Source: Obrimoposthia wandeli
Lineage: Eukaryota
Assembly: GCA_977020255.1 (NCBI GenBank)
Contig: CDROCS010000067.1
Span: forward strand, 248,001 to 312,000
DNA: 64,000 nucleotides
Direction: 5' to 3'
In this document: positions 25,190 to 60,843 of the stretch, piece by piece
How the letters are laid out: the number at the start of each line of letters is the position of its first letter
Position numbering within the stretch: the first letter of the stretch is position 1
Notes under the pieces: model-generated
The model's database searches: none
Seen by the model: only the letters and a program-made list of their open reading frames with translations
Told to the model about the DNA's origin: nothing
Position numbers and translations under genes: made by a program

Positions 25190-27050
25190 AGAGGCCATAG
25201 CCATACATTTACATTTAGATTTAGATACCCAAATCCGACTGTATTACTAACTGTAGTACTAATCATCGTGTATAGTTGTCGGTAGCGACTTATAATACGT
25301 GTTTGACCACAAAAAATAATGCTCATTTCTAATATCAGTTAAACACAGAACAATACCTTTAACCCCAATACTTGATTTTGACAAGTAACTTTTAGGTTTC
25401 AAGAAAACTCATTCATCAAAAAATACTTCCGTTTCATATTTGAACCTTCCAGTAACATTTTTTTAACATCATTGTACGAGCCATGATTAGATTGATAATT
25501 ACTGGTGTCTAACAACTCATTCAGTTAATAAAATGATCTTGCCAATTTTCTTACATTCTAGATAACCGAATCAATATCCATTTATACTATATTTATTTTG
25601 CAATTAAATTATTTCTATAAAACTGTATTTTAATGTACTTTAATTAGTACATTCTTAATTTTGGCAAGTTTAATACCGCTTGTCTAACATACGAGGGTTT
25701 ACCAAGACAAAACCTTTGCATAAATAGTAGATATAAGTCAGCATTTATTACAATATGACGCTTAAATCATGGACTGGTTGCGAACTTAGTGAATTTATGA
25801 TAAATTTAAGTAAGGTGCACTCTAGTCTCTTTTAAGATGATTTACAGTCTTACCATAAATGAAATATGTAAAGTTTTTATTAAATGCTGGGTGTACCTTC
25901 AGCAGGCTTTATCAAGTGAACTTTAATGTTATTTTTAAATATTTGTGCTCGACTGAATTTTATAGCTCTATGTACATTGTTTATGCGACACACATAAATA
26001 AATAAAACTGTAATAGAGAAGAATGTATTATGTAGTTTAATTTAGGATTACGTGCCATCATTAATTTTGATACTGTTAAGCGAAGGACACTCATGACTCA
26101 GTGCAAATGATAAATTGTCAAATTAATCATGTATATTATTAGGAATTGTCACGTCGACTTCCAACAAGTACTCATAGTCTAAAATACGTTAATCAAATAG
26201 ATTACCATCAAAGTCCATTCCAGTTAAAAGTTCAACAATAACATCGAAACTGACATATATTCACCTAAAGTCAGCATGATGAAATAATTTATATCAATAT
26301 ACAGAAGGAATGTATCATCATCAGATTTAGCATTATGTTTATTAATGAAAGTGATTCCTTCGTGTATACACACTTCAAGGACATTATACATATCCCGGTC
26401 TTTTAATAATTATATAGACTAGATTTAAAAGCACTGACCCAACTAAGACATGGTATACTAAAGCATATGGTTAAACTTAATATCAGGCTCTAATATCGAC
26501 TCAAAGTCGACGTATAGCAAGAAGTTGGAGGAACCGAATGAAAAATCAGAAAATTTATAAAATAATTCTTTAGGCCTAGTAAATGTTGCAATCAGTAATA
26601 TGTTTAACAAATGCAAGTTCAGTTCTGAGATCAAACAAGTATTTTGCACATCATGAGAGTTTGATATGATATTTGTATTAGTTAAAAAGTCAGATTAAAT
26701 TGACTATTCCAGTATAAAGGATAATTAACTACCTGATCACTTGTACCCAACTTAGAACGCTAATTAAAATTAAGTTCATGATTTCTAAACACTGTTTTAT
26801 CCCTCGAATGCATCTTTTTCAAACTTGATTAGAAAAACAGTTATGTAAATTGCATTATCTTCATCGAATTCAGGTATATTGTTTTGGTCTATTTAAATTG
26901 CTGCTTTACAAAATAATAATAATATTCACAGGGGCCTATGATTTCGTAGATGATTCGGGTGTTTTATGTAAGGCAATTAATAATATTTTAAGTAGAGACC
27001 ACCCAGAACTCAATTTACTGTAGATTTTTTTTAATTCAGCTGTTCTAGTA
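25190..27050 (-). pseudogene. Degenerate protein-primed PolB of an older Polinton, with most of the exonuclease region deleted
   Basis: SSGWSL, YVDFESIL, FSIPCLSWVSAFKS, DMYNVLEVCIHEGITFIN, YLLEVDVTIP, KPSYVRQAVLNLPKLRMY and FLKPKSY are collinear with the PolB at 48183-52755. Confidence 0.85.
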
Positions 27051-27234
27051 TACACAATATCCGGTTCAAAAATATTAGTCTTACAACCACCTTCTTGAAC
27101 AACAACAGATTCGTCTACAATTAAAGACTTGTATATAGTTCAAGTGCAATATTAGATTTAGTATCAGAAAAGTTGAAGACCGGATAAAAATGCAATCAGA
27201 CAGACCCTCATCTTCAATATTGAATCAATTAAAT

Positions 27235-27580
27235 TTAAGGTATAATTGTAAGGATTAAACTCCAACCATTTACAACTGTAAAATCAGTTGTTTCTAGTTC
27301 CAGAACGGTTGAATCGTAGTTCTGTAGTACGGTGTAATATGCATGCTTTCCTTGCAATTCGACAAATTGAATAAGAGCACTCGGATGAAAAGGTCTAAGT
27401 GGATCGAATACATGCACGTACATAGGGCTCGCGAATAGATTTCATATAGACAGATTTGATTTATGGGTATTTATGATACATTCTCCGAGTGACAAGCTCG
27501 GTATTTTGTCTGACGTGTATACACATCTAAATTGTGATTTGAATAGAAATTATTTTGTTAATCTGAATAGTGCAGCATGA
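27235..27580 (-). pseudogene. Degenerate adenain-like protease of the older Polinton
   Basis: FRCVYTSDKIPSL..CIINTHKSN and HVFDPL match FNGVYSLDHIPSL..YVINTHSSN and FVFDPF. Confidence 0.8.
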
Positions 27581-27599
27581 AAAACCGTCTTACTATATA

Positions 27600-28690
27600 G
27601 AATAGTATTTTTGTCTCGTTATTTGGAATCCGGAGATTCCACAATTCAATACATTTGCACGTCAAGGTTGGGCTTTGTTTCAAGTCTAAAATTGTCTTAT
27701 TGTCTAGGTAATTGCGAAGTATTATATCGAAATCAGACGAAAAACCTAAGTTAAAATTGAAATATTTTAAAATCATCTGTGCCAAAATTATTGTCAAGGT
27801 TGATCAGGTTTTTAATGATTTACTGAAAATATGCAAAAATTATTTTGTTGGTTTCATAGTTTGTGTTATAAGTTTCATTGAAATCAATGCTTCGAGCCAA
27901 ATTTACAGTTCTAATGGTCAAGCGATTAAATATTGATGAATTCGAAGAGGTTGGATCACTACCTTTCTCACTGACTTACATTGTAATCTACACAGTTTTG
28001 GGTAATTGTGTATCATCAAATATCTGATCTTTGTAAAATTCAACGGTACATCGGCTACTACAAGTAAAATATTTAATTGGAATCTTATGATCAGTTAAAA
28101 CGACAGTACATTCTCACAGGCCTAACTTTCAATTTAGAACTTACAAACTGTACCATAATTCAGACAATTTGACGCTTTATTAGGTATAAATTTAGGCATT
28201 AGTGAAATACAAAAGCTAAAGATACGTTGGTTGCTCAAAACTATTCGATTTGATAGACTCGCATTAGTTGCTCACTTTTCACGATCATGCTCAAACCCAA
28301 AGCTAAATAGAAACGTTTCTCGAGTTTCAGTGCTATAATTCCAAGCCGTTTCTATGTTGATTTGTATGAATAATGAGAGGTAGTTCCAATACATGTATTT
28401 TCATTCAAATTTGAAGGCTTTTACGCATACTATGAAACAGGAAATTTGTTTGAACTATATTTTTCCCCACTGTAAGATCTTCATCACAAACTTTAAGAAT
28501 TTTATTTTCAGCAACAGTGAATTGATAACATTTGGATATTCAACGTCGGATCTTTGAATTTTAAATATAATCTCTGAAATGTCAGAACCAGTTATGTGAT
28601 TTGTAGAATAAAGATATATTCAAATGAAGCATTCTCAACAGCTGCAGTGGCACCTGACTAAACATACAGAGCTCAGATTAACCACAAGCC
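27600..28690 (-). pseudogene. Degenerate major capsid protein of the older Polinton
   Basis: MACG*SELCMF, VENASFEYIF and SSDFDI correspond to MSCAKTELCIF, VDSASFEEIF and SPDFDI. Confidence 0.8.
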
Positions 28691-28895
28691 ATAACTAAGC
28701 AAGTAATATTTCAGTTTTTGACGTTTTATAGTATGTCAACATCTCCTACCTTCTTGCCACCTTCACAGAATCTGCTTCTACATCATACCTTTGTTTCTAT
28801 CGTGTTTTAATGTTATACTTCACTTGCTGCCGTCTTTTCTCCGAGTATCACCCTGGATTTTACCAAACTAAATTTGAAAACAAGGTTTATATATG

Positions 28896-30307
28896 TGTTG
28901 GGGTTTCTATATGAAACTTATAGATCCTCTTGAATGTGGAGGGCCCCAACGTGAGTTCTTATAGAAGCAGGACTTAAAGATGGTTGTGGCCTACTTAATG
29001 TTATAGTTGCCTGTCTCAATGCTTATCTGAAGGTGTTTGTTTTCCGATGTCTCTTAATCTGAAGGGTTTAGAACAATGCTTTCTAATGTAGGAAATCTTT
29101 TATTGTTAACACACTAGACTAAACAAAACAATACGTTTACGTACGTATTTCTAAAAAGTTACAGTAAAATTCCTAAGACTTCTGTAAGTCTCTACACAAG
29201 TGGGGATGAATCACGTATCGATTTTACTTTTAGGTTTGCTTTAGTTACTAGAGTCTTTACTCTAGAATTGCGGGCAAGTTTACAGAGCTGTTGCTCTAAA
29301 ATATAAATAGTTTACAGAGCTGTTGCTCTAAAAATGTGGGCACTTTTAGTTTCTTTATTTTGGGTAGAGTAATCACTCTAAAATATGGACGAGTAAATAC
29401 GGCAATTTAAATTGTTAATTCTACAACGATGCTTTAGTCAAGTCAATTCACTAATGACGATTTTGGTTTTACTTTATATGAAAACAATTTATCTAAAACA
29501 ATTCTTTCCCTTTGGGCACACAAAATTCACTTTCTTTTACGTATTTATCAAACAATAATTCACTTTCTTTTACGTATTTAAAAAAACAATAATTCACTTT
29601 CTTTTTACGTATTTATCAAAACAATAATTCACTTTCTTTTACGTATTTATCAAAACAATTATTCACTTTCTTTTTCGTATTTATCAAAACAATAATTCAC
29701 TTTCTTTTACGTATTTATCAAACAATAAATCAACTTCTTTTTACGTATTTATCAAACAATAATTCACTTTCTTTTTACGTATTTATCAAAACAATAATTC
29801 AACTTCTTTTTACGTATTTATCAAAACAATAATTCACTTTCTTTTTACGTATTTATCAAACAATAATTCAAAAACGATTCTCTCCCTTTGGGCCTCTCAC
29901 CTCCTCCGAATATCCTTAGGTCCTTCCTCGTGCTGGCTGTTATTCCTCAGCTGATCCGTCGGTGTTCGGGTGTCCTTCGAGTCCTTTGGTGCAGCGCGGA
30001 TCGTACGTTAGATCAGCGTCCTCTCGTTCCTTCAGTCCTCTGTGTGCTCACGATTCAAGCACGGTCCTCGTTCGCGACTTTTTGTCCTTTTCCAGTCGGC
30101 CTAATTAATTTCTGTTTTCTTCTTTTTTCGACTTCAACAATTTGCTTTTATACCTTTTCTCAACTGAGCCTCGAGACACGAGCAGTTGGCCGGTTCCCAG
30201 AAACTAACGATGTTTACTCAACAATTAGCGCAGTGACTTCCTGAATATCTCGGGTTCTCGCTTATTGCTTTCTGCACTCCGCGAGTAATCTAATTTTCCG
30301 AAATGAG
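28896..30307 (+). mobile_element. Truncated LTR of the same family as 16165-18293
   Basis: Starts TGTTGGGGTTTCTATATGAAACT, homologous to 16165. It ends abruptly at terminus C. Confidence 0.85.
29520..29870. repeat. Minisatellite inside the LTR, 33-35 bp unit TTCACTTTCTTTTTACGTATTTATCAAAACAATAA, about 10 copies
   Basis: Array read directly from the sequence. Confidence 0.95.
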
Positions 30308-30458
30308 AGTAGGTGGATGTGTCCGGTCTAATCCACACCCCCCCTCCCCCCACTTGTCCTTTAAAACCGTGCATGTGTGTGGAGTGAAATTTCGTGTAGG
30401 TGTGTGGAGTGAAATTTCACTCCACACACATGCACGGTTTTAAAGGACAAGGGGGGGG
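30308..30458 (+). mobile_element. Polinton-like terminus C with a perfect 41-bp hairpin
   Basis: AGTAGGTGGATGTGTCCGGTCTAATCCACAC. Arms 30353-30393 and 30411-30451 are exact reverse complements. Confidence 0.7.
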
Positions 30459-34859: not shown

Positions 34860-37800
34860 CCTTAACACAACGACGTAGATTTGAATAAATAGCTCGAAGA
34901 GCAGTTATACCTAAGATATATATCCAGAGCAGTGACAAACTCCACTACCATCACAATACATCGACTTAATTAGTCAAAGCTAGATGGACCTAATAAAAGT
35001 ATCAACAGCGCCAGCAAAATTCCTATTAGCAACGGAAAAATACAAAGTTTCGTGTCGGCAACACAGGAAGATCCCAATGAGGAGAATTTGACTTCGGTCC
35101 TTGAGGATTGGGACGGTGTTCCATCGGTTATCCCAACAAATGCAGTCGCAAAACCAACCAGTAACAGTAGAATTTAATGACAAAGATAATTTTAATCATT
35201 TTCTCGATGAGTGGGAGGAAGTCAATCCATCTACTCCCGCTTTCCTTACCACCCGAGAACCCTCCCCCAGAAGAGACTAAGTCATTGCTTAGTTAGATGA
35301 AAGCGAGTGGCGGCTGTTCACTGATGACTAGGACAGACTTACACCATCACCACCTGCTGCTACAACCGTTAACGACATATTGTTGTTGCTGAAGCCGGAT
35401 TTTCAAAAGCTCCAGACATCTGTTAGATGAGCAAGGAGAAGAAATGCTACGAATGAGGAGAAATTATTTATTTAAAACATATGATTTTCAATATATTTTT
35501 AGAAAATCCAACTTGATATAGCCTTATTGGTACCTTCCGTGGGAAGGTAGGTCGAACTGAAGATCAATGTGAGCCAATGTAGCCAGGAGCTTCAGAGGAC
35601 TCAGCTGCAATATCTGGCTTGGTCTGGGCAGCTACAAGTAAATAATTTCATATATGAATAAAACAATTATTGTATTCGGTTCTAGGACAATTACCCGCCG
35701 GACATTTACCCGCCGGACAATTACCCCCCGGACATTTACCCGCCGGACAATTACCCGACTAGGACAAATACCCGCCGGACAAATACCCGCCGGACAATTA
35801 CCCGACTAGGACAATTACCCGCCGGACAATTACCCCCCAAAAAATACAGGGCGAGTTTATGCACTTTTAATATAAACAATAAATTAACATTTTTTACGAA
35901 GAGGAGTAATTTAATTGTATTTATTTATTTAGATTAATTAAATTAGTAAAAAGTTATTAATAAGGGGGTATAAAAACCTAAAAATTGGTTATTATTGGTT
36001 AAATAGGTTATTGAATAAATATTGTTAAGAATACTGGAAGGTAAGAAAAAAACAATTGACATGTGTTTATTTATTTGTATAGTTATTCTTGAATAAGAAC
36101 AATTCTATAACAGTCACATTGATCATCACAGAATCTACATCTGTAGGTTGTGTGCAATACCACAAAGAAAGTCTAAGAATTTTTAAAGTTAATATTAAAA
36201 TGGAAACAAACACACAGCTCATACTTTTATTGACGTTTAAATATACAGTTATAAAAAGTAATTTTAAATATGTAAAAGTAAAAAACTGAATTAAATTAAA
36301 ATAATAATAGTGGTTTAGCAAAATTATACAAATAAATTTTAGGACATGATAATTCGTAATTTTACTTTAATTTGTATTATCTGAAAATAAAAATGAGAAG
36401 TTCAATTAAATGAATTGTAAATATAATAATAATAATTTAAATTAAATCGTCGACATCGTCAAGTTGCCGGAAATCCTCCCGCAATCCCGCAGACTCGTGC
36501 CGAAATTATACTACCTGAAAAGTACAAACGTACACTGGCAGATGAGTATGAGTATGAGCTGTGTGTGTTTGTTTCCATTTTAATATTAACTTTAAAAATT
36601 CTTAGACTTTCTTTGTGGTATTGCACACAACCTACAGATGTAGATTCTGTGATGATCAATGTGACTGTTATAGAATTGTTCTTATTCAAGAATAACTATA
36701 CAAATAAATAAACACATGTCAATTGTTTTTTTCTTACCTTCCAGTATTCTTAACAATATTTATTCAATAACCTATTTAACCAATAATAACCAATTTTTAG
36801 GTTTTTATACCCCCTTATTAATAACTTTTTACTAATTTAATTAATCTAAATAAATAAATACAATTAAATTACTCCTCTTCGTAAAAAATGTTAATTTATT
36901 GTTTATATTAAAAGTGCATAAACTCGCCCTGTATTTTTTGGGGGGTAATTGTCCGGCGGGTAATTGTCCGGCGGGTAATTGTCCTAGTCGGGTAATTGTC
37001 CGGCGGGTAAATGTCCGGGGGGTAATTGTCCGGCGGGTAAATGTCCGGCGGGTAATTGTCCTGTTACCATTGTATTCATAGAGAAACATGATCAAGTACA
37101 TCAACTGCAAGATGAGCTGGGAGAGGATGTACCTATTACACTAACTAGCCAACAGCTACCAGAGGTTCACAAAGCAAAGAAATTGAAGGTGAAGAAGACG
37201 TTCGTGACAACGGAAGTGACGATCGCGATAGAGGATAAACTGCTACACTAGTGGGCAATGGGTTAATCTTTTACGAGAAGATCCCAGTCACTCCATCGAG
37301 CTGTCTCCTTCGCCGACTCGATGACTCCGGGAACCGTCACCATCTGCAGACTTATATCTATCTTGTTGACTCAATGACAGCCAGAATGACCACCAGTAAT
37401 TGGTCAGAGGTCAGCAACTTTGGGCCAGAATCTGATGCAAGCATGACAAGTTACATATACCACACCTCAGATTGCTGTATCAATCAGCCAGAATCTGTAA
37501 CATGGCTGACTCAATGCGGGTTGTAACAAGTTCTTGGCTGAAATGGTAACTCCGCACCCACAACTGCAATTGCAATCGTCACAGTATTATCTTGTTTACT
37601 ATAGGCAACATGGTGCGGTGGTACATCAGCTGGTGCGTGAGAAGCAGCAGAAGAAGTCAAAGGAGAGAAAGAAGCGATCGCCCCAAAAGAAGACGACATC
37701 AAGTCTGTCTACACTGTTTTGTGCCAGCAATTCCTCCTCTCCACAGATAGGTATCATCGGCTTGTGTATCTACGCCATCTGCAGCGACTCTCAAAATTGC

Positions 37801-38820: not shown

Positions 38821-39260
38821 GAAGATGATATTGGGATTGAGAAAATTGAATTATCAATACACTGTTGAATCGATTTTAGAAAATATATTTTGTTATTTTT
38901 TAAATAAAAAGATTGTTTAAACATATAGTTTCAAATGAATAATACTATAAATACAGACAATTAAGTAGATCATCTTGTTGACGAATTTTGTTCTAGAAAA
39001 ATTAAGGGTAAGCAAATATTGAAATATTGGTTATATCACATGTTATTCAAGAATTTCGTACTCGAACGCAAATAAAATTATAGCCAAATATTCATAAATT
39101 ATTTTTTGTATTTCATCAATAGTATACTTTTGTCATACTTTTCAATAAGGAAACTTATATAATAATATAAACAATATTAAAAGGAAAAAGTATATGTAAT
39201 GGAGCTGAATAATAATGCCGTATTTAAAATTGTTGCTTAAAACACATTTCGTAGGTAAAC

Positions 39261-39482
39261 TGTTACAAAATGAATCTCTTTTCAATTCCAAAAATATTTA
39301 TTGGCATCATGGTGGAAGAGGAAAACGTGGTGTTTACGAACTTTATTTTCATTAAACATAAAACATTTATTCATAAAACATCGTTAACTAAAAAAACACA
39401 TTTAGGGTCACAAATTCCCCTTTTTATGCAGAATAGCGGTTTTGCTTCAATTATAATTTAAACATATTTACATATTTTTACA
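39261..39482 (-). mobile_element. 3' LTR (222 bp) of the Bel/Pao element, preceded by a polypurine tract
   Basis: Minus strand reads AGGTGGGGGAA|TGTAAAA...TGTAACA. Confidence 0.75.
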
Positions 39483-47361: not shown

Positions 47362-47640
47362 AGTAGGGGGATGTGAGGTATCAAACACAAAGTAGGTCAT
47401 ACCCCCCCTGCTGAAGTTTTTTTTTTTTTTTTTTGGTGTGAGGTCTCAGACACAAGGTCAATGAAGTCAAGGTCATACCCCCCTGTTTTGTTTTACTGAA
47501 GTGATTTTTGAATTTTTGTTTTACTGAAGTGATTTTTTAAAATTTGAATTTTTGAATTTTTGTTTTACTGAAGTGACTTCTTTTTTTTTTGAATTTTTGA
47601 AATTTGAATTTTTGAATTTTTTATTTTTTATTTTTTATTT
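47362..47640 (+). repeat. Polinton terminal region (TIR candidate) with short direct repeats
   Basis: AGTAGGGGGATGTGAGG start. TGTGAGGT..CACAA..GGTCATACCCCC occurs twice; TTTGTTTTACTGAAGTGA occurs three times. Confidence 0.7.
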
Positions 47641-48182
47641 CAAAAACTTGTGTTTTTAAAATATTATTATTTCTCATGTGAATTTTATAATATTCATGTA
47701 GGTCAACAAATTATTTATTATTTATTTTCAAAAAGTTGAAACTTTATTTTATTTACAAATGTTAGTAGAATATATTTTGTTAATATTGTTTCCTATTTTA
47801 TATGAATATATTTGGTTAATTTAGTTTCCTATGTAAATAATTAATAAGAGAGAGACATTTGAGACAAATATGTATTATAATATCACAAGAGAATCATCCA
47901 AATAAAAAATCAGAGTGTAAAATCACAAAGTCACAAAATAAAAAATCAGAGGGCAAAATCACAAAGTCACAAAATAAATCAGAAGATAAAATCACAAAAG
48001 AATTTATACAATAAAAATAAAATAAATATTACAGATTTATACAATTTGAAAGTATTGATACAATAAAAATAAAAATTTATACAATACAAAGAAAATCACA
48101 TATCAAAGAATGGATTCAATAAAATAAATATCACAAGACAAAGTAATATCACAAATAAAATAACACAAGACAAAGTATTCAT

Positions 48183-51100
48183 TCATTCAATAAAAATATC
48201 ATCGGGATAAAAATGATGTCCATAGGCAACGGATCGGTTCTTCTCTATCCATTTCCTTTTATCATCGGAACTAAATAATGCAATTTTACTGTGCCGTATT
48301 GTGAAAAGCTGATGGTTAAATGATCTCATGCGCTCTTGCTGCACTCGTTCACTTACCCCGCTCTCATATACGGCCAAGTAATTTGCATGACGAAGTTCCG
48401 TCTGCTTTAAACTAACTCCCTTCGCTCTCATATGTCCCCCTCTCTCTGAAGTAGCTAAGCTATAGCACTTTGGACGTAGAAATATCCATTGTGAATAAGT
48501 GCACACCCCCTTACTTTCATCCTTAAACTTCCCTATTTCAGTGTTTGCCAGAGTAAATAGCGGATGATCCACGGGAAATTTCGATGTGTCCAGAAGCCCA
48601 TCAGAAATCATTGCAGGCAACAAGTCAGCTTTAACATTCACATTTTTACAATGAAGGAAAAAGCTATCTGTGTCACCTGCACTTATTCTGATATCACAAC
48701 TAAACTGTTGTCGATATTTCTCGAGTTGAATGTATTGTAACTCATACATCCGCAATTTACTTAGGTCTAATACTGCTTGCCCTATATAACTTGGTCAATC
48801 TAAGACGACATTATCCTGATTTAATAAAACCGCAATGAGATTACTGTCGATTTCAATCGACCTCCGAAATTTGGCTTTGCTACAATAGGTAACGAGTTGA
48901 CTGGAAGTCTGACAAATCCGAAGGTTAATTCTCTTCATGAGATTCTCAATGAGTTTCCCGTAAAGAGAATTAACTTTCAGTTTGTAGTAATCCTTATCGA
49001 AATCTGTTGCAGCTGCAGCCCTCTTAGCCGAATTATCCTTAATATATTGTTCGAAAACATTAGTCTGTGCAAACTTAATTGCTCTATGGACGAAATCTAC
49101 TTTAGCCCCAAGGCTAACGTACATTTGAAGCAATCTTGAATGCACAACATAATGTTTCTTGGGGTAATGTGTTAGCAATAACTTTTCAGTTTTGCTTCCT
49201 AGAGGGCATTCATTTCGCGGAGCTAAGGGGAGATCATCTAATTTATTGTGAAGCTCATTCGGGATAGATAAATATATTTCCAAAAGATGAGCGTAACTAC
49301 TTTTAGAGAGGTCAATACTCGCGAAGGAAGTTAATATGGAGTCGAGTTCTACCCGATCCGTTACCCATGAAAATTCCCCATAAGGTAAAAATTGAGACAT
49401 TGCCCACCCATACAAGTTGTTCACGTCAATATATAGTAGTTCCGAACCTGGTCCCGCATCCGTCTTGTGCGTATTGACGAAGGTCATTCCTCCTCGAATA
49501 CCCTCGCGGAACATCTGGTACATCTCCGGGTCCTGTATGAGCTCGACTCTGATGGGAGCAGGAATCGGAGACGCAGGAGTCGGAGTAGACGATATGGTGA
49601 TCGGAGACGCAGGAGTAGAGGTTATGGTGATCGGAGTAGTTGGAATCCGAGAAGGTACTGAATTGACCTCTGGAATAAGCAGCGACTTGAACGCGCTAGC
49701 GAAAGTCAAGCCTGAAATGGAAATAATTATTATTAATAATAACAAAGACAAAAAGTTGCAAATAGTTGCAATAATTTTAAATATTTGCAAAAAGATGCAT
49801 TTATGATGCAAAAACATGAATTATGCTAAAATAATAATTCTTACCGGGTATACTGAAGAAGTTCAGAGGCTCCAGCCCATCGTCAGAGAGAGCCTTGAGC
49901 CGGAAAGCCGTGAAGACGTCAGCGAGCAGATACACGTCCATCTTCATGTAGATGAGCATGTAGTCCCATAGGGACGTGCACCCACTCTGAAGCCACATCT
50001 GCTCGGCTAACTGGTATTGGGCTGGAGTTATCATCGTATCCCAGATAGGAGGAAGGGACGTGATGGCGCGGAGAGCAGTCTCTGACACAGCCATATTATA
50101 AGGGAAGATGCCTTTGCCGCTGACAAGATGCGGTGGGAAGACAGAATGGGTCAAAGGCGTAACTCCCGAAAGTGAAACCAAGTTTGCGAGACCGGAATTC
50201 AAAAACTGCATTGAATCAATGAAGCGAATACAGATCCCCTTGATATATACCATTAATACCTGGAATTTCTCTGTGGATTGAGGGATCACAGAGATACTCC
50301 AATGCGGAAACTTAGAAATCGCATGTTTCAGTATATGGTGCATATCATATCCCCGTAAATTATGGAAAATTACGGGGAAGATCCTATTCAGCCTCCTTGA
50401 TAAATTACATTTTGAATGCGCGGCCCCGAGAAATTTTCCAGTCATATGGTCATGATCACGGACCTTATTGACTAGGCTCTTCTTGCACAGGTAACAGATA
50501 GTCGCTGCATTGAAGGCGACAATCTGTACGTCTGTGAGAGGGCGCATCACCTCAGCCGCGTGATTCCTGTACCAAGGAAGTACAACCGAAGTTGCCAAGA
50601 CCTCCAACTTCTTAAGGAAGTCCACGATACACAATTCTCCCGTGAATTCTGTGTAGTCGTGTGAAAAGTTACCGGTAGCCGAAATCGGAGTCATGAGCAT
50701 CCCCACAGAAATAGGGAGATGGATTTGGTGACACAGCTTCGAAATCAGCATACACAGCAAAAGGAGGAGAAATGGTTTTTGCGAAATCCGTAAATTCAAT
50801 ATATTTATTAGTGGGCATTGAATAAAGAGTCGTATGATCTTTATTCATTGTACACCTAGGAACGTGCTTATCAAAGCTAGTTTGTCGTCGGAATCCGTGT
50901 AGACATTTATAGCACCATATGCTCTGAACACGAGTTCCGACAACATTTCTGTTCTAGTAATTCATAAATGTATTGAAATTCGTGATTGCCGCATAATGAT
51001 TTTCCACATCATTCTCAATAAGCAGAAGATTGATGGGCCTAGCGTCAGGATTTGTAGTGCGGTAAACCACATCTACAAAAGGATTTTTAAAAATCTCCTG

Positions 51101-52755
51101 ATTTGGCGATGGTGTCAAACCAAAACTATTGAACGTGAATACGTTGATTGAGAGAGAAGGATTCTCTCTCTCGAATCTCGGTATGTTCAATAGCCGCATA
51201 GGCATATCAGAAAGGTCATAATTTAACCTATCGAGCAGATCATCATATTGACCTGCTCGCTGAGGATTTACAGGGAATAAGCCCCTAAAAAGAATAGCCA
51301 GAATGCTATATATAAAACAAAGCGGGCCAGTATTCTGTACATTCACAATGCAGTGAGAATACCGTAACCCGTATGGCGTAGGAATATACCCGCTTCCTTG
51401 GAGTCTATTAATGATAGTTGTCCTAGTGACAATAAAGAGATCTCCAGGAAACGGTTTATTCGCCAATTACTTGCGTTTTTGGAGTACGTCTCGATTTTCT
51501 GATTAAGGGAATCAATCCCATTAGAAATAAAATCTGACTCTGAGAAAGGTAGAGCCACATTCGAGATGTTCCAGGGTCTTCTATCAGAATCATTTATGAA
51601 TTCGACATGGACCCCGAACTGTACTTTGCAAGTCGCAAATTTACGTACAGACTCCCTTAACGCTGACAAAAGTGAAGTAGGTACAGACAGATCAGTCATA
51701 TTATCACTGGAAACATCCAGCGAAATAGTGACGATACTACCACCTAAACCAGTATGGGACCCCACATTCCCCGTAGCCCGCTTCGAGGAGGATGAACCCG
51801 AAGTTGGGTTTCCTTGCCTCTTACGAGTACCAATGACCGGCAACGAACTAGTGGAGGGTATCGCACTATTCGGTGACGGACCATTAGTAGAGGAATGTGC
51901 ACCAGTAGAAACGGGAGGCAAATTACCCGCTCCCACTTGCACTATGGAAGAAATAGCAATGAGGCCAGAGCCCGAAGGTGTAATAAAACTGGGCATTGAG
52001 CTAGAAAAATTGCTCATAGAGCCAGATACATTGCTCATAGAGCTAGTTACATTGCTCATAGAGCTAGACAAATTGCTCGTTGAGCCAGAGCACGAAGGCA
52101 TAACAAAACTGCTCGTAGAGGCAGAAACAAAACTGCTCGTAGAGGCAGGAACAAAACTGGGCATAGAGCCAGAGCCCGAAGGCATAACAAAACTGCTCAT
52201 AGAGGCAGAAACTTGGCCCGAAGCCCCATCCGAAACTTGGCCCGAAGCCCCATCACATACTTGGCCCGAAGCCGCATATTCATCTTCTTCTTCTTCTGCT
52301 CCATTATTGCTCCATTCATCTATTATCTCGAACTCTTCGGTCTGCATATCATCATCGCTGATCATCTGCATATCAACATCTTCATTGTCATCGCTGATGA
52401 TGATGGTAGAATGATGAGCAGCAGCAACTGGGGCAGATACTGGAACAGTAGCAGAAATTGGACCAGCAACCCGAGAAATAGTAGCAGATCTATTCTGAAA
52501 GATGGCCTTCTTGCCACGTTGCTGGAAATGACGAAGATGGACACGATGACGCGCCACAAACTCCGACCAATCAATATCCTCCGCGGAGAGACATACTGGA
52601 CATACGTAGAATTTTTGTCCGTTGAACTTCTGTCCAAAGTAGCTCTTCATTTTTCCGTCACATTCCTTGTGACTCTCCTCGAAGCATAATTCTTTGTTCA
52701 TATTGCAATTCTAGAAAGAAATAAATTAGCAGAAAAATAACAATAAAATTACCAT
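48183..52755 (-). pseudogene. Protein-primed family B DNA polymerase, spliced (introns 52711-52752 and 49712-49844), with nonsense and frameshift lesions
   Basis: NVQN..CFIYSIL, YADFEA (ExoI), CYLC..RDHDH..CNL, FHNLRGYD, YIDVNNLYG, KLKVNSLYGK, GDTDS, LRPKCY. TGA at 48795-48797, TAG at 50954-50956, frameshifts near 51430 and 50720. Confidence 0.93.
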
Positions 52756-52802
52756 TTTCAATTTCGTTTATAATAGGGGATTATTTGTTGATTGATGCTT
52801 GC

Positions 52803-52809
52803 TTATATA
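52803..52809 (-). promoter_or_regulatory. TATA box upstream of pPolB, with CCAAT at about 52832
   Basis: GTATATAAG on the minus strand about 48 bp before the ATG at 52755. Confidence 0.55.
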
Positions 52810-52886
52810 CTATTTTCAAGCTAGTATTAAGCCAATCAGATTTATTCATTATTTAAACCAACCAGATTAATTTAAAACAGAATAGT

Positions 52887-53396
52887 TTACTGACAGATGT
52901 GAGTAGTTGAATTTTCATTAATATTTAAATAATCCAAACTAGCTGCAAAGCATTTCTTGTATGCACAATGCTCGCCATGTTTAATATATGGACAATTGAT
53001 ATTTGATGGATTTAATTGTTTTAATGTTTTCCAGTAATTTATCACTCTAAATTCAGGAAAATATTTATTGATTGTCTTTATTTTAGCTCCATTATTTTCA
53101 TCCAAAACATAGAAAATTGATTTGGATACATCACAACAACGTTTTATTTTCTCAGTTATTTCTTGTATCTTGAAATAACTATTACCATCAACTAGTTTTA
53201 GTCGATGGTAATGCTTAATGAGATATCTATTTATTTTTCGTGATTTTCTATTCATAATGTCCCATATGGGTTGCATTTTAAAAACATAATGTTTAGGATA
53301 GAAGATTGCATCCACATCCAATATACATAGTTATATTATTACAAATTCAGTATTATTATCAATAAAAGCTTCAAAATCAATAAAATAAACAGACAT
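52887..53396 (-). pseudogene. Polinton accessory DEDD-like protein with one in-frame TAA (53331-53333)
   Basis: MSVYFIDFEAF..II*LCILD, then HYHRL..DG and a C-terminal CPYIKHGEHCA. Confidence 0.75.
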
Positions 53397-53433
53397 TTTT
53401 TATAGCAATAATTTTATTTGATATTGTTTATAT

Positions 53434-53811
53434 CTATTGTTTATGCTTTAACCAAAGCAGACAGAGTTGTCCACATGACTGTGTTAAAACATTTTGATAA
53501 TGTTTCTTACTAAAATGTACTTTCTTTCCAGAATCAAATACTGTAGATACTAATTTAGAAGGGTAATATATCCCAAAGGGGTCAAAAACAAAGATTTCAT
53601 TTTCATTAACATGTATTGCAATCCAATGTTCACCACGCAAATTAGATGAATGTGTATTGATTACATATCCACCTAGTCGAGTCAAAGAGGGGATGTGATC
53701 AAGGCTGTAGACTCCATTGAAACGCGAACCGAGTAGTTTTCTTCCGCTTTTTGTTATCTCGTCCGAACTAGAATATATATTAATTAATAAATTCAAACTG
53801 ACTTACTTCAT
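53434..53811 (-). CDS. Adenain-like cysteine protease, spliced (intron 53768-53806)
   Basis: Spliced N-terminus MNSDEIT. Catalytic motifs GEHWIA, FDPFG and YQ..TQSCGQLC. Confidence 0.92.
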
Positions 53812-53842
53812 TTATATATCTTCTTTATTGTTTTCATTCTGT

Positions 53843-55065
53843 TTATACTAGTACTGTTCCTCCCTTGGTAATTTGAACCTCAGAATCGAATACTCCATAG
53901 ATTATAATATTAGTAGGGTGTTCAAGTGCTTTTGAAAACTTGATTTCTACTTTCAAATTTCCCTGTTTAGGGATTTGAGCTTGATTAATATCGAAATCAG
54001 GAGAGAGAACAAATGTGAACAGTGTATACTTGTCCTTGAAATCAGTCATTGAAATTCCAATATTAGCATCCTTATCCAAATGACCAAGATTTCTAATTAA
54101 AGATTGCACATATGAAAACACATAATCATCGTTTTCAAAGTCATTCGTATAAGATTCTTGATAATCAATATTTCGTGCAAGTTTAATTGATTCATGTGTC
54201 CAAATTGAGAAACCTCATTTTTAGACTCACCTCCATAGGTAGACGTGTTTTGGAAAGCAATTAAAACAAAGTTTGGAAGTTGCATATCACCAAAAATCTG
54301 ATCCTTGTAATAAGATAGTGCTCCCGTAGGGATAGCGTGAGAAACAAGATTAGTTTTTCTAATAGGATAACATGCATTTTGCTTCTCCAACCCCATTCGA
54401 TGTGCAACAAGTACAGATGGTTCCACCTTTACTCGTCGAACCAGCAGTTTTGCTTCCGTAATCTCAATTGCGGTTTTAATAGTATCAGCGCAAACAACAC
54501 TAAAACCTACTGGATTTCTTTTCATTCGAATATGTGCACTTACACCGGGTAAAAGATACTTTGGTTGCTTAAAGAAATCCAAATGAAGACTCCCACAAAG
54601 TGACAATACTTTAGACTTTGCAATCGAAGCAATTCTTCTTTTTTCATCATTGTCAAACCCAATTGCATCAAGATTAATCAATTTCGTATCATTACCGTAA
54701 TTCAACAATGTTTCAATCATTGCTTTATGGGTGTAACTAGTATTATTTCCTTCAACTTTCACATTATTGAGACTGAGAATCACATCCTTGAAAAGAGTAT
54801 GCAACATGTAATTAGCTGATTTGATATCCATACCATCATCCAAATCACCTCCACCTTCCTTTGTAACTTTCAATTTAACGAGAAATAAACTATCATTCAA
54901 ATCAAGATATTGAGTATTGGATCCATTAATATTGAATTCTAAATCCGGAGAAGATGTCCCGTTAACCGTATTTGTCGGAAATATTTCTTCAAAACTAGCA
55001 CTATCAACCACAACCTGAGGTATAGGTTTATCGAATATACACAATTCAGTTTTAGCACAACTCAT
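53843..55065 (-). pseudogene. Double jelly-roll major capsid protein with a frameshift near 54180
   Basis: MSCAKTELCIFD..., LHLDFFKQPKYLLPGV, YTLFTFVLSPD, GNLKVEIKF. The two ORFs join after FGHMN. Confidence 0.9.
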
Positions 55066-55427
55066 TACTTAAAAATTGTTCCACCTAGTTTCAAACGTTT
55101 GTTTATACCCGATGCTTTAGATGTTTTCTTACGTTTATAACCACTTCCCTTTTGAGTTTTCTTTTTCAAAAATTCAGCTAGACTTGGTGAAATTTCATTC
55201 ACCTGATCCAAGGCTGCATCCTTTAGTGTAGGAAGAAATTTCTCATCACCAGACAAGTATTTTGATCCAACATTAGCAATAAATTTCCCGAGTCGCTTGA
55301 GTAGTGGGAAAGCAAAGCGACCAAAAACCTTCATCCATCCTGATCCATACTGTTTTCCGGCAAAATAAGGCAAATCACCTCCTTGCATCGGTTTACTATA
55401 CGCATCGATTATACTTGAATCAATCAT
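55065..55427 (-). CDS. Small basic virion core/precursor protein with adenain-type GG/GSG sites
   Basis: MQGGD, QYGSGWMKVFGRFAFPLL and QKGSG. Located between penton and MCP, as in Polintons. Confidence 0.8.
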   Translation of the reverse strand: MIDSSIIDAYSKPMQGGDLPYFAGKQYGSGWMKVFGRFAFPLLKRLGKFIANVGSKYLSGDEKFLPTLKDAALDQVNEISPSLAEFLKKKTQKGSGYKRKKTSKASGINKRLKLGGTIFK

Positions 55428-56452
55428 ATTTTTCTAAAATGTATTGTTAAACTTGTTTTAGCTCCAAATGAAAATTTAATTAATCTTCCTGAATCATCCC
55501 GAATGTTAACTTCAATATTGTTTATAGAAGAAGAACTCACAGGAATATACATTGGATTTTCAATTGGGATATGTATAATATCTCCATACTTGTGCTTTTC
55601 CTGTTGAACCCAAATAGATTTTATTAATGGAAGTTTATTTCCACCCACAAATATCGGTTCAGTAATACTTGTGTAAATATAAATCTGATTATACGCATTA
55701 CTTAGCTTTGCCCGATTAGATGCTCGGAAAACTTTATTAAGATTTTTAAAACTGTTTTCATTGAATCCTATAATTGTAGCTAAATTTTTATCCATATTTA
55801 TTTCTTTTACATGTGGTTTCAATTTAAACTCAATTATCTCCTTTTTAACATAAAAGCTTTCAAATATATTATCAATATTTTTCATAAAATATTGACAAAG
55901 ACTTTCAACATTGGAAAATAAGCAATCATTTTCGAATGCATACTGCTCACGTACATCCTCTTGATTATAATGATGCATCTTTAACTTTAATGTCGGTAAA
56001 TCATATATTTGATTTGGTAATTCCGATTCATAAAACATACTTTCAATAGGAGCTTCTTTCATACCGTAACTTAATGCTAAACTTTTATTATCAATTTCTA
56101 AATTGAAAGCTTGTCTCGTAGTGCGAGTTATACAAATTTTGTTTTCGCCGCTAAGGTAAATAACATATTTACTATTAATTGGCGTTAAATACTTGACGAA
56201 AAATGCTCCATGTTTCATTTTCACACCAGCTTTAACTTCAGTTTTTATTCTTTTCTCCACAACATAATCTATAATTGACCCTCCTTTAATGGATAGAGGA
56301 GAGTAATTGAAAGAAAATTCCGTCAGAGCAGCTTCCCAATGCCCAGGTAAATTGATTGAGCTTTGATAATCAATACTAAAACTATTAGCAGTATTATTCG
56401 GCTGAGTTAATGGTGAACCATTACTTGGTAAAACAACATACATTGAGTTCAT
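55424..56452 (-). CDS. Penton (minor capsid protein)
   Basis: YVVLPSN, WEAALTEFSF, IYIYTSITEP, YIPV..INNIEVNIRDDSG. ATG at 56452 overlaps the integrase stop. Confidence 0.9.
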   Translation of the reverse strand: MNSMYVVLPSNGSPLTQPNNTANSFSIDYQSSINLPGHWEAALTEFSFNYSPLSIKGGSIIDYVVEKRIKTEVKAGVKMKHGAFFVKYLTPINSKYVIYLSGENKICITRTTRQAFNLEIDNKSLALSYGMKEAPIESMFYESELPNQIYDLPTLKLKMHHYNQEDVREQYAFENDCLFSNVESLCQYFMKNIDNIFESFYVKKEIIEFKLKPHVKEINMDKNLATIIGFNENSFKNLNKVFRASNRAKLSNAYNQIYIYTSITEPIFVGGNKLPLIKSIWVQQEKHKYGDIIHIPIENPMYIPVSSSSINNIEVNIRDDSGRLIKFSFGAKTSLTIHFRKI

Positions 56453-57477
56453 TCTATTTGAGAAGCTAATATCCAACTAGGTTCAGTATATCCATGCCAC
56501 TTAACATGATATTGTTTATGCTTTCCTCTACCTTTTGTCTCTAAGATTTCTTGAATTCTGTATACTCTAGGCTTTGATGGTAATACTTGTAGTTCTTCAT
56601 GATAAAACTTTCCTGCAATTTCATTATTGGTTTCATCCTCAATGAAATACATTACCGGCACACGTTTATTATCAATTTTAGTTATACGAAATACTTCATC
56701 GCTCCAATTCTCTTTGAAATTCTTTATAAAAGGAGTAGTACTAATTTGAGAAATACGTACATAATCACCAACTTTATACTTGGGTTTCCGCGCAACTTGA
56801 CTTTGGTTACGGCGTTGCCAAATTTCCATAGCATTCTCATCTGTAACATCAACAGGTCTCTTTCGGTCTAATGATGAGTGTTCACTATGATTGTATGCAT
56901 GTATTATTTGAGGTAAAACAGTAACCCATGACTTATTTCCCTGCTTTGTGAAATACTTTTTCAAACGATCTCTCAATGTTCGATTAAAACGTTCAACTAA
57001 AGCGGCTTTATATTGGGAAAATACTGAGTAATGATTAATATTATGTTTTTTCAATAGTGTTTCAACATGTTTATTATAAAACTCCTTTCCACTATCCGTT
57101 TGGAAATTTCTTGGTTTTATTTCTTTAATCAAAAGCTTCATTGCGGTTAAAACATCGGTACCAGACTTAGACTTTAATGGAATGGCTCGCGCGAATCTGC
57201 TAAAGACATCAACACAAGTTAAAATATATCGATATCCGTTGTTAATACTAGCATACGGAATCATTTCCATCAAATCTGCTTGCCATAAATCATTCGGGCC
57301 GCTCGTTTTGTATGATCTCGTTGGGAACCGACGTCTCATTGGTTTGTTTAAGCTGTAAGCTAATTGATTTCTCAACCACGCCTGAGTTTCCTGCTTTGTC
57401 TTCTTTGACTCTTTTGCTAATTTTGAAACCCCTGTGTAACCAACGGGGTGACTTGGATTGAACCATATTTTCTCCAT
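56449..57477 (-). CDS. Retroviral-like (rve) integrase with C-terminal chromodomain
   Basis: WQADL, CVDVFSRF, QTDSGKEF, ALVERFNRTL, then YRIQEIL..YHVKWHGY. Confidence 0.96.
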   Translation of the reverse strand: MEKIWFNPSHPVGYTGVSKLAKESKKTKQETQAWLRNQLAYSLNKPMRRRFPTRSYKTSGPNDLWQADLMEMIPYASINNGYRYILTCVDVFSRFARAIPLKSKSGTDVLTAMKLLIKEIKPRNFQTDSGKEFYNKHVETLLKKHNINHYSVFSQYKAALVERFNRTLRDRLKKYFTKQGNKSWVTVLPQIIHAYNHSEHSSLDRKRPVDVTDENAMEIWQRRNQSQVARKPKYKVGDYVRISQISTTPFIKNFKENWSDEVFRITKIDNKRVPVMYFIEDETNNEIAGKFYHEELQVLPSKPRVYRIQEILETKGRGKHKQYHVKWHGYTEPSWILASQIE

Positions 57478-57580
57478 TGCAGCAAGATGATTTGATTTTT
57501 AAATTGAATTTAGGAATAGATGGAAGTGATCCCATATATAAATTCATATTATTATTGATTCGAATTATGCTTATAATCAT
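57290..57580 (-). CDS. Small hypothetical protein overlapping the integrase 5' end
   Basis: ATG overlaps the upstream stop (ATGA). Contains MGSLPS and KIKSSCC. Confidence 0.35.
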   Translation of the reverse strand: MIISIIRINNNMNLYMGSLPSIPKFNLKIKSSCCNGENMVQSKSPRWLHRGFKISKRVKEDKAGNSGVVEKSISLQLKQTNETSVPNEIIQNERPE

Positions 57581-57782
57581 CGGTTTATTAGTCTACTAGC
57601 AAGTGCACCAACTATTGAGCTAATAATTGGTACGAGAAATCCTAAAAATCCACCACTTTGCTTATAAAGCAACTTACGTTTACCGATTCGTATTTGGGAT
57701 GAAACAAAGCAAGTAGAGGTTTCTTATGTCGATTCATGTTAGCCTTGACAATTATTTTACCAGAAACTATTTTCTGTATCAT
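57577..57782 (-). pseudogene. Small Polinton QxGGF protein (amphipathic virion-protein precursor) with a 1-nt frameshift near 57685
   Basis: MIQKIVSGKIIV..RHKKPLLAL, then RKLLYKQSGGFLGFLVPIISSIVGALAS. Length of 206 nt is one short of a full frame. Confidence 0.7.
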
Positions 57783-57997
57783 ATTAAGTAATCATCAATT
57801 ACAAAAGTAGGGAATGATTTAAGAATAGCTGGGCGGCGAATAGCAGGTGCACGCATGAGAGAATTGAAATAGGCAATACTCCTAGATTTCTTAACAACAG
57901 TTCTTTTAGATTTTTGAGCAACCATTTTCCTTGCACTTAAAACTGATTTAATCAATTTTTTAACTTCGGGTTTAACAGTTTCCTTTTTAAAATTCAT
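57779..57997 (-). CDS. Small Lys/Arg-rich protein (possible DNA-condensing protein)
   Basis: 72-aa ORF with ATGA overlaps at both ends. Confidence 0.55.
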   Translation of the reverse strand: MNFKKETVKPEVKKLIKSVLSARKMVAQKSKRTVVKKSRSIAYFNSLMRAPAIRRPAILKSFPTFVIDDYLI

Positions 57998-58644
57998 CTT
58001 CTCAAAACTGGTTTCTTTGTTTGTTTATAAACGGTTATTCCCGATGGATTGAATACATCAGTTCTAACTCTAAAGTCATCGGGACAATCTTGAGTAAAAT
58101 CAATAAAAATGTATCCATGAGGAATAGTAGTTGCATCTTGAAATGAATCAATTAAAAACTTTCTATTATTCGGGTAAGCTTGTCTTGAAACAAAATCAAC
58201 AACCGTCTGATCACGTGGATTCTTGAAGAGAACAAGGTAATGTACATTTAAATTACGAGTTCTATGGTTCCCTCCTTGATGAAATAGATTTTGTGTGATG
58301 AAAATAACAGTTACTTCTCGATGTCGTCCTATTTTAGTGAATAAATTATTGAAATCACTCTCTTTATTTGCTTCTTGATACAGATCATCAATAACAATAA
58401 CATCATGTCGTTGTAATCGCTCAGACCAATTATCATCGAATCCATTAATGACTTTTATATTTTTGATTTTCTTAAACTCTTTACTGGTTAAACCAGCTTC
58501 TCCATCTCCTCCCTGATGCCAGTATATTTTATTAAACTTAAAACTAAAGTATTTATTATTTTGCAGTAGTTTACATACAAAATGTGTTTTCCCACTACCA
58601 CTAGGACCTACAATCTGAAAAACTGAATTATTTTTTAAGTTCAT
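57994..58644 (-). CDS. A32/FtsK-like DNA packaging ATPase
   Basis: GPSGSGKT, VIVIDDL, TQNLF, LFKNPRD. Confidence 0.95.
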   Translation of the reverse strand: MNLKNNSVFQIVGPSGSGKTHFVCKLLQNNKYFSFKFNKIYWHQGGDGEAGLTSKEFKKIKNIKVINGFDDNWSERLQRHDVIVIDDLYQEANKESDFNNLFTKIGRHREVTVIFITQNLFHQGGNHRTRNLNVHYLVLFKNPRDQTVVDFVSRQAYPNNRKFLIDSFQDATTIPHGYIFIDFTQDCPDDFRVRTDVFNPSGITVYKQTKKPVLRR

Positions 58645-58687
58645 ATTAAAAATATTAGATTATCGGGATAATGTTTATAAGACAAAA

Positions 58688-58969
58688 CTATTTAAAATAT
58701 TTTATTACGAAACATCCAGCAACTAACAATAAAAAACTCTTCTCGTAGAAAAAGCTCCTTTTCTCTTCTTTGTTTGCGAGTTTCTTCTGATTGTATCCCT
58801 GAATGAGAAGATTGACTGCCTTGTCGTGCACCATTCTTCTTACGTGCTCTTCCAGGGGTAGATTTGAGACATCAATGAGTTGCAGAACATCTGGTTCTAT
58901 GACATTCTTCGAGATGAAGCTCTTCACCGCCTTGTCAACATCTTGCTTGAAATAGTTTGGAGTAGACAT
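58688..58969 (-). CDS. Hypothetical 93-aa accessory protein
   Basis: ATG at 58969 (MSTPNYF), with GTATATAAG at 59003-59011. Confidence 0.55.
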   Translation of the reverse strand: MSTPNYFKQDVDKAVKSFISKNVIEPDVLQLIDVSNLPLEEHVRRMVHDKAVNLLIQGYNQKKLANKEEKRSFFYEKSFLLLVAGCFVIKYFK

Positions 58970-59044
58970 AATGATGATGATGAAGAAGTAAAAAGTAATC
59001 TGCTTATATACTATACATCTGAAATCTGATTGGTTAATAAATAC

Positions 59045-59135
59045 ACTGACTAATAAAGACACTAAAGACACTGACTAATAAAGACACTAAAGACACTAAA
59101 GACACTGACTAATAAAGACACTAAAGACACTGATT
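59045..59135. repeat. Short tandem array (GACTAATAAAGACACTAAAGACACT-like) upstream of the 93-aa gene promoter
   Basis: Read directly from the sequence; 3-4 imperfect units. Confidence 0.85.
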
Positions 59136-59156
59136 AAAGATAAAGACGAATAAAAT

Positions 59157-59879
59157 TTACACATGATAACGATTAAAAATACGTATTTGATGAAGCATAG
59201 CTTCATTAGGAGCAGCAATAGTCCGTTTAGCTTTAACAAGATTCGAAGCAGCAGTAACACCAATCGAATGAGATAAAAATGCAATAACAATACAAGCAGC
59301 ATGTAAACTACCATAATGACCACATACTAAAATCTTACCACCATTTTCGATAGTTTCTTTAATTATATTATTAGTCTGTTTATAATACTTCATTATTGTT
59401 TCTCCTAATTTTGAGTTTACAAAGACAGAAGTATATTTTAATTTCTTATAAGATATTTTATCCAGTATAGATGTATTGATTACATGAGTGAAATTGGAAT
59501 TCAAAAGATTAGTTTCATCAAACCCATCTCGATAATTACCAATATATAATTGATTTACTAAAATCTCACTCATCGCTGTTTTGTTTAACTTTTCTACATT
59601 AAGTTGAGTAAATCTAGCACTAAACAAACTATCAAAAAGATGGGTCATGTGGTTCATTTCCATACTCGAAGCATGAGCTATTATGGGTTCCATAAAAGCC
59701 AAAGCATTTAAAAAATCTATCCGTCTCTTATCTTCAATAATTGGATCTATAATAATTTCTTCTTCTATCGTCACTTCATCAATAGTTTCTTCTCTTCTTA
59801 TAACTGTTGTTGTTGTTGCTGGTAGTGATGATGTTGCTGGCGATGATGTTGCTTCTGGTGCTGAATTGATTTTCTCCAT
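59157..59879 (-). CDS. Dual-specificity phosphatase-fold protein with a degenerate catalytic loop
   Basis: LYIGNY, FTHVINTS, GGKILVCGHYGSLHAACIVIAFL, VKAKRTIAAPNEAMLHQI. TATATAA at 59906-59912. Confidence 0.85.
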   Translation of the reverse strand: MEKINSAPEATSSPATSSLPATTTTVIRREETIDEVTIEEEIIIDPIIEDKRRIDFLNALAFMEPIIAHASSMEMNHMTHLFDSLFSARFTQLNVEKLNKTAMSEILVNQLYIGNYRDGFDETNLLNSNFTHVINTSILDKISYKKLKYTSVFVNSKLGETIMKYYKQTNNIIKETIENGGKILVCGHYGSLHAACIVIAFLSHSIGVTAASNLVKAKRTIAAPNEAMLHQIRIFNRYHV

Positions 59880-59929
59880 TTTATCAATTCCGACTCAATT
59901 TAGTCTTATATATTAAACAAGGTTAGATT

Positions 59930-60156
59930 TCATTGGAGCATCAGTTTCATCATATGATTTGATTGGAGTATTATTCAACCTTTCCATTGTACTTAACATC
60001 TCATGTAAATGTAGTTGATGACGTAACCTAAAGAGTTAAATAAACTACATATAAATATTACTCATGATTATTTTTCCTAATTAAAGCATTGAGAATAACT
60101 GAAGCAAGATCTTTTAATGCATCCTGAACCTCTTTACATTCAATAATTTCATCCAT
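59930..60156 (-). CDS. Candidate spliced 63-aa ORF (intron 60028-60061)
   Basis: MDEIIECKEVQDALKDLASVILNALIRKNNHE|LRHQLHLHEMLSTMERL...; the unspliced frame stops at GAG TAA. Confidence 0.4.
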
Positions 60157-60284
60157 TTTATGATAAAGCAAATCAAATATTGTTTATAACCCATGAAAAA
60201 TCTATTTTTAGACCACATTACAACTATTTGCAACTATTTGCAAGTAATGACATGTGATGTCTTTGTCTTAGTATAAACAATATT

Positions 60285-60843
60285 TTGATAATGATTTTAT
60301 TGAAAATGGATAATCAAAATAATCAAAATAATGAAAGTAGAGCTAGTACATACATAGGTTCCGGTAGTAATTTATTTTCTAATATGAATTATAATAGAAA
60401 TAATCAGAGAGAAAATATTAATCCATCAAGTCAAACAATAACAAGTCCTACGCGAGTAACCGAAGAACGTGAGTCCTTTAAGGATAGGACTAATACTAGA
60501 CGATAAACAAGAATGTTAACCAATTGAGACTAATCGACCAATTAGAATCGAGCATTAGAGGATAAACAATTGAATATTTCAATTTATAATTATCAATATG
60601 AATTTCGAAAAGCTATATCAACCTATGCATACATATTATGGATATGAGATGCACTTTTTGAAGAAAGCTCATAACTATAATTTTATTTTTCCTGTCAACA
60701 TCGAGCCGCTTAAATTTGATTTTGAAATATTAAATTTGACTTCTGTGGATAAAGAGAGAATCAATATTCTCTTGTCTCAATTCGGAATCAACTATGCGCT
60801 TCAGGAAAACAAAATCGTAAGCACTTTAAATTGCACACAATAA
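60285..60843 (+). pseudogene. Divergent accessory gene or genes of the Polinton, probably frameshifted
   Basis: Two short ORFs (73 and 81 aa) downstream of GTATAAA. Function not recognised. Confidence 0.3.

Follow-up and report, generated by a model that had tools for sequence, protein, structure and literature searches.

The closest described systems are the animal Polintons or Mavericks (polintoviruses, proposed adintoviruses), which have in common with the elements studied here a pPolB, an rve integrase, an A32-like ATPase, an adenain-like protease, a DJR-like capsid, AGT termini, long TIRs and a 6-bp target duplication. In the accessible text of the respective papers the core genes of vertebrate Polintons are described as intronless (PMC8097293), Caenorhabditis Mavericks combine intronless core genes with introns in cargo genes (10.1101/2022.07.12.499685), and endogenous viruses are described without introns, an assumption on which surveys use prokaryote-style gene callers (PMC10120064). 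In contrast to these accounts, we here describe family-wide GT..AG introns in the protease and PolB genes; the trait of intronless core genes, descriptive in the papers, thus does not extend to these two genes in the family that we call A and its relatives.

Introns are known from three other comparable systems, as described in the available sections of the papers. Dinoflagellate Maverick-Polinton-like elements also have spliceosomal-type insertions inside Polinton-like elements, but these introners are mostly secondary, repeated insertions acquired after integration (PMC11957031), whereas each intron described here keeps a single site throughout entire families. Mirusviruses have canonical introns in core viral genes, interpreted there as a ratchet that binds the virus to the nucleus, but they belong to another virus realm, infect protists and carry many introns, some with homing endonucleases (PMC12768974), in contrast to the two or three short introns without ORFs found here. 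The adenovirus IVa2 gene is likewise a core gene with its first few codons in a separate exon; it is a different gene with a complex splicing programme (PMC7851563), and the likeness is one of analogy. We found no account of conserved introns in animal Polinton core genes in the literature, and the accessible portions of PMC8502044, PMC10748475, PMC12220804, PMC11296320 and 10.64898/2026.07.28.741278 make no mention of a spliceosomal intron in such genes; subscription papers, Repbase entries and supplements may contain such cases.

The DNA analyzed (the window) is a stretch of 64,000 nucleotides from Obrimoposthia wandeli (contig CDROCS010000067.1, positions 248,001 to 312,000), taken from an AT-rich assembly of 1.35 Gb. 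An MCM5 of the host has its highest scores with entries of animal type (424-430 bits, vs. 374 bits for yeast-type entries), which makes an animal host probable. It contains a comparatively young Polinton of family A on the minus strand (47362..60823), with a terminus at 47362, a truncated opposite end at 60823 and stops and frameshifts of its own. Its genes encode a phosphatase, an ATPase, an integrase, a minor capsid candidate, the major capsid protein (MCP), a protease, PolB and an ORF without a Pfam match that we take to be nuclease-like. PF03175 (protein-primed family B polymerase) scored above cut-off in two ORFs of the young copy, as did Pox_A32 (A32-like packaging ATPase), and PF00665 (rve integrase) was found with an E value of 4e-14. 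The protease fell just below the cut-off for Peptidase_C5 (21.1 vs. 21.3 bits), and its relative P0123 carries PF00770. The MCP had no Pfam match and an atlas feature score of 0.97 to DJR-like clusters. AGT termini and TIRs of about 1 kb or more (95.5%) are present in other family A copies, and a 6-bp target site duplication was seen in two of the three family A elements with both ends located, the window's young copy having one end. Taken together, the pPolB, integrase, ATPase, adenain-like protease, DJR-like capsid, AGT termini and TIRs identify the young element as a Polinton. The expansion of Polintons in this genome is very large: 34,349 first-look candidates (candidates, not copy numbers) were obtained genome-wide with a PolB query of 121 aa, and 150 of 150 scored were unbroken at the intron site discussed below.

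Several further observations were made on family A and its neighbours. The terminal repeats of family A take in roughly the last 160 codons of PolB (L369/L370, L371, L373, L375, L377, L379), and a dual-specificity phosphatase (PF00782, window 59157-59894) is carried as cargo. The protease half of the element (window 52468-54000) far outnumbers the PolB half (48200-52467): it counts 2,526 vs. 226 junctions, and its contig depth, when summed, exceeds that of the PolB half tens of times. Other PolBs may be the partners of the protease half, or it may occur without any. Module swapping was seen at L092, L099, L340 and L341, where PolB and capsid halves from different families are joined, and some loci hold a pair of PolB genes from different subfamilies, closely spaced and oppositely oriented, an arrangement that could also come from one element nested in another. 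The motif TATAAACA, a possible promoter, recurs a short way in front of several element genes (at 53822-53848 and 58674-58682 in the window, and at other loci).

At 25.2-28.8 kb lies a relic in which MCP, protease and PolB follow one another in this order, all three broken; gene order and strand (minus) are as the earlier note had read them. The broken major capsid gene occupies 27594..28701, the matched part of the second protease exon, also broken, 27313..27571, and PolB 25246..27085; the latter was delimited by tblastn with ORFs of families E and F and with P0010, and has many stops and frameshifts and a reduced N-terminal part. Matches break at 26463..26464, a deletion junction where, by comparison with L347, about 856 nt have been lost. 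The relic PolB matches the young-copy ORFs that carry PF03175. The nuclease-like ORF that separates protease and PolB in the young copy is absent, and neither an integrase nor element ends were found for the window's relic. The same note had taken the relic for an older copy of the young Polinton. This does not agree with an amino-acid identity of mostly 24-41% over the longer matches and almost no similarity in blastn, where the best match is 47 nt. Relatives at the DNA level do occur in the genome (64-84% identical in short blocks, decayed), and the less decayed family F (L347, L335) has 62-69% DNA identity to the relic. From these comparisons we assign the relic to a separate, decayed Polinton family (D), which forms one clade with F (SH-aLRT 100).

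The young PolB gene is interrupted by a phase-1 intron of 133 nt (49712..49844, minus strand) with GTAAG..TTTCAG ends, followed immediately by an in-frame, Pro/Thr/Ser-rich insert of about 41 aa with approximate limits (49548..49670, minus strand). All 30 family A loci fetched have the intron, with lengths of 133-150 nt that ignore the frame (25, 3 and 2 loci by remainder mod 3). The adjoining insert keeps frame in 29 of the 30 copies and has no stops. A pattern count at this site gave 226 donor junctions and no intron-free junction. At the same phase-1 position an intron is found in subfamily A2 (28/30 loci, 110-120 nt) and subfamily A3 (30/30 loci, 41-47 nt), both of which have shorter P/T/S inserts than family A. 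The PolB proteins of A, A2 and A3 are 70-78% identical, with 28-56% identity at third codon positions; comparison of intron interiors among the fetched loci showed that each of the three types matches only its own subfamily. The P/T/S insert belongs to the coding sequence; it expanded within the clade that carries the PolB intron (A, A2, A3). In A3, AGGTT stands at both ends of the intron, which is compatible with a small duplication and equally with splice consensus.

The DNA at this site has the traits of a spliceosomal (U2-type) intron: a fixed site, GT..AG ends, an AT-rich and frame-free interior and conserved flanking exons. Across the subfamilies the GT and AG ends stay while length and interior change, and the exon upstream keeps 85-87% amino-acid identity. 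This pattern bears on the idea that the segments of both genes are unspliced, inert insertions copied along by helper elements. The excess of family A capsid halves over PolB halves (2,526 vs. 226 junctions) does indicate that passive copying is common, but inert DNA fits poorly with ends that are retained between conserved exons as everything between them varies, and the dominant family B has the protease intron too; we find this explanation scarcely credible.

In the relic, the codons AGT ATA CCA TGT CTT AGT TGG (SIPCLSW, 26439..26459, minus strand) read straight through the homologous phase-1 position, the empty site lying between 26450 and 26449, and the P/T/S insert is absent. Both had been noticed in the earlier reading, which set this stretch against the 133-nt intron of the young copy (49844-49712), and both hold. 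Upstream of the empty site no more than about 13 nt are preserved, as the deletion of about 856 nt ends there. Among the 30 family D loci, 20 (the window's relic included) have no insertion, nine do not cover the site and one, L048, has an insertion. Outside A, A2 and A3 the site is equally empty: excess length was 0 in 60 of 60 loci of families B, C and E (obtained with queries spanning the PolB site), no more than 6 nt in the JGI loci (74 scorable of 80), and no more than 18 nt in IMG/VR loci (14/14) and database proteins (112 scorable of 120). No intron-sized insertion was thus seen at the PolB site in any scorable outgroup, in sets that favour unbroken genes.

In a PolB tree of 49 rows, three of which have no intron state and were left uncounted, A, A2 and A3 form one clade (SH-aLRT 100) and the intron is a single change on its stem. 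The position of the other families is less firm. A tree joining A with D+F was not rejected (p-AU 0.67) and scored above the quick tree by 11.3 log units, and the sister of family D was E in one PolB tree and F in another, after F had been added. Whichever way A, B and D+F branched, the outgroups lack the PolB intron. Most likely, therefore, judged from these alignments and trees, the PolB intron was gained once, on the stem of the A/A2/A3 clade. The earlier proposal that the relic serves as an internal control for intron gain in one lineage stands for PolB in so far as the tree has one change, and fails for the protease (see below); the support for gain at PolB comes from the outgroups rather than from the relic.

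The opposite polarity, an intron ancestral to the whole radiation that families B, C, E and that of the relic had since lost, would gain from the unsettled family relations and from L048, a locus of the relic family where a 64-nt insertion (L048:1822-1885) beginning with GT and ending with AG sits exactly at the PolB intron site. The interior of this insertion is, however, the end of an unrelated dispersed repeat, since 32 of 40 genome matches cover the interior only, and it occurs in one copy. There was no PolB match near the repeat in the 19 loci checked, and no second locus with the flanks and the insertion together. The insertion reads as a one-off hit on a dead copy and not as a relic intron; it does weaken any claim that the PolB site can be hit only once. 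Ancestry would in addition require many exact losses, including in the interleaved metagenomic relatives, and is very unlikely. We therefore keep to a gain on the A/A2/A3 stem.

A different history emerged for the protease. In the young copy a phase-2 intron of 39 nt (53768..53806, minus strand) comes after the first five bases of the gene, the ATG being at 53811-53809. It is present in 10 of 11 family A loci, and a pattern count gave 2,526 donor junctions and no intron-free junction. The protease would depend on splicing, because reading through the intron meets a stop within the donor and the second exon, the downstream ORF of the window's copy, is without a Met.

The relic protease had been thought to run from its ATG straight into TIQINKII without a donor. 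We found that it retains a remnant of the intron (27573..27593, minus strand), with the donor GTAAGA at 27593-27588 and the 3' part deleted. Alignment with 15 relatives, three other loci and the young copy placed GTAAGA column for column on their donors, and a GTAAG would fall within 5 nt of a given position by chance in about 1.2% of cases. The ATG at 27578-27576, earlier read as the start codon, corresponds to a CATG inside the introns of the relatives L063 and L068. Among 29 relatives of the relic, the protease start is covered by 15: GTAAG is kept two bases after the ATG in 10 (near-duplicates included, about seven being independent), five are degenerate and none joins directly. That both introns were gained in the young lineage, with the relic intron-free at both sites, is right for the PolB site, and the window's relic taken alone has no acceptor at the usual distance, owing to the deletion of the 3' part. 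Against this stand the donors in the relic and in its 10 relatives, the lack of any direct joint, and the protease intron in both loci (2/2) of F, the closest less decayed family; we give almost no credence to a gain of both introns on that branch.

Protease introns of 38-43 nt were counted in A (10/11), the A2-type capsid module (2/2), B (14/15), C (7/7) and F (2/2), with interiors that differ between families whose proteases are 33-79% identical to that of family A. With family D, the predicted intron is present in all six protease families sampled in the genome (A, A2-type, B, C, D, F). Because it is common to all six, the intron would predate their split, and the relic does not provide an intron-free control at the protease: within this radiation the intron is widespread, the ancestral state that had been named in advance as speaking against the proposal. 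As a separate observation, the MCP stop overlaps the protease start (ATGA) directly before the intron donor in families B, D and F (L296, L347, L335 and family D loci).

To place the protease intron further back we turn to proteases from outside the genome, where the 34 best compared consist of four from one search and 30 of the 150 listed in another. Five of them (P0123, P0125, P0127, P0130 and P0132), from ENA and Logan metagenomic records, carry an extension rich in F/I/L/Y/N whose last residue, directly ahead of residue 3, is Ser, and these extensions look as if they were the expected product of a gene caller reading through the same acceptor; an intron is predicted for these five. In seven of the others the N-terminus is truncated; a direct start with Met, at the usual distance, is seen in about 21, and one more begins with a long, unrelated stretch. 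Prokaryote-style gene callers would thus cut off or mis-extend the protease start, as seen in these relatives. At the DNA level, the viral contigs gave no match to P0128 or to alignment A2, and the close-clade JGI contigs no protease match.

A FastTree of 113 protease columns placed the genome families and all five extended proteins in one group with a support of 0.65, inside which the direct-start proteins P0128/P0278 and P0135 are nested. This nesting in a weakly supported group, together with the differing interiors and the swapping of capsid and PolB modules between families, could point to repeated, parallel gains of the protease intron at one site, or to its transfer between families by recombination. 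Six families as far apart as 33-79% identity to A nevertheless have it in the same phase and position and within a narrow range of 38-43 nt, for which one gain followed by drift of the interior is a simpler explanation, and we consider parallel gain or transfer unlikely. A single gain within this lineage long ago, with possible later losses, is the likely course, the part outside the genome being based on predicted proteins. The intron would be old and common to these families; the deeper protease outgroups start directly.

Taken together, it is probable that the relic represents a separate, decayed family that lacks the PolB intron and keeps a remnant of the protease intron, and that the two introns differ in age: that of the protease was gained once before the families split, and that of PolB later, on the A/A2/A3 stem. 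An old common intron combined with a younger, clade-specific one amounts to polarised intron gain with many genomic copies.

Splicing of all these segments is predicted from the DNA. Presumably the element, once integrated in the genome, would be transcribed in the nucleus and its introns removed by the host spliceosome; an intron would then be inherited by every daughter copy and seldom lost, and would spread because the element copies itself as DNA. For introns of 38-45 nt, splicing by the host is a prediction only, because manual measurement of two host introns gave lengths of about 53 and 77 nt. For contigs from four runs of unknown kind, all from one sample, none of the 15 joints covered (of 52) lies at an intron, and these contigs are silent on splicing.

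A third segment may belong to the same group. Directly after the ATG of the young PolB (52755-52753) lies a candidate start intron of 42 nt (52711..52752, minus strand), seen in 10 of 20 upstream stretches and with similar introns in other families; it is less certain, as an in-frame Met follows three codons later. GT..AG segments at or just after the PolB start codon were found in A, in A2/A3-linked genes, in C and in the L092 variant, at differing positions, and B2 has a candidate segment just before the PolB ATG. In four JGI relatives (L131, L132, L137, L172) PolB starts directly. Inspection by eye of up to six loci revealed no coding intron at the starts of the ATPase, integrase, minor capsid, MCP and nuclease-like genes.

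A concentration of introns at gene starts can reflect a benefit for expression, or an escape from the silencing of intronless transcripts. Possibly, an aid to expression is what preserves the start-proximal introns of the protease and PolB, a speculative idea that we put forward with less than even confidence. In its wider form, which is equally tentative, a lineage of animal Polintons extending beyond this host would have come to depend on splicing for its protease, and separately for its polymerase, by way of start-proximal introns kept by selection as licensing nuclear expression. If true, this genome, where candidate PolB sites number in the tens of thousands, would offer a dated series of viral intron gains, among them a second event at the same PolB site, caused by a repeat fragment, and thus a natural experiment on the origin and fixation of introns. 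The introns would tie Polintons to nuclear transcription, and make it testable whether start-proximal introns aid the expression of mobile elements.

Other repeated sequences were noted in the window. A fragment of a third Polinton ATPase gene lies at 39190-39334 on the plus strand. An element with perfect inverted arms of 408 nt and 15-nt subrepeats, MITE or foldback-like, occupies 35670-37077, and hairpin-forming repeat ends are common to 30346-30458, 4348-4424 and 42884-42967. Pieces of related transposon ORFs are found at 4.7-6.7 kb and 43.2-43.6 kb, and tandem arrays with periods of 177, 25 and 34 nt at 1-665, 16492-17800 and 29524-29880.
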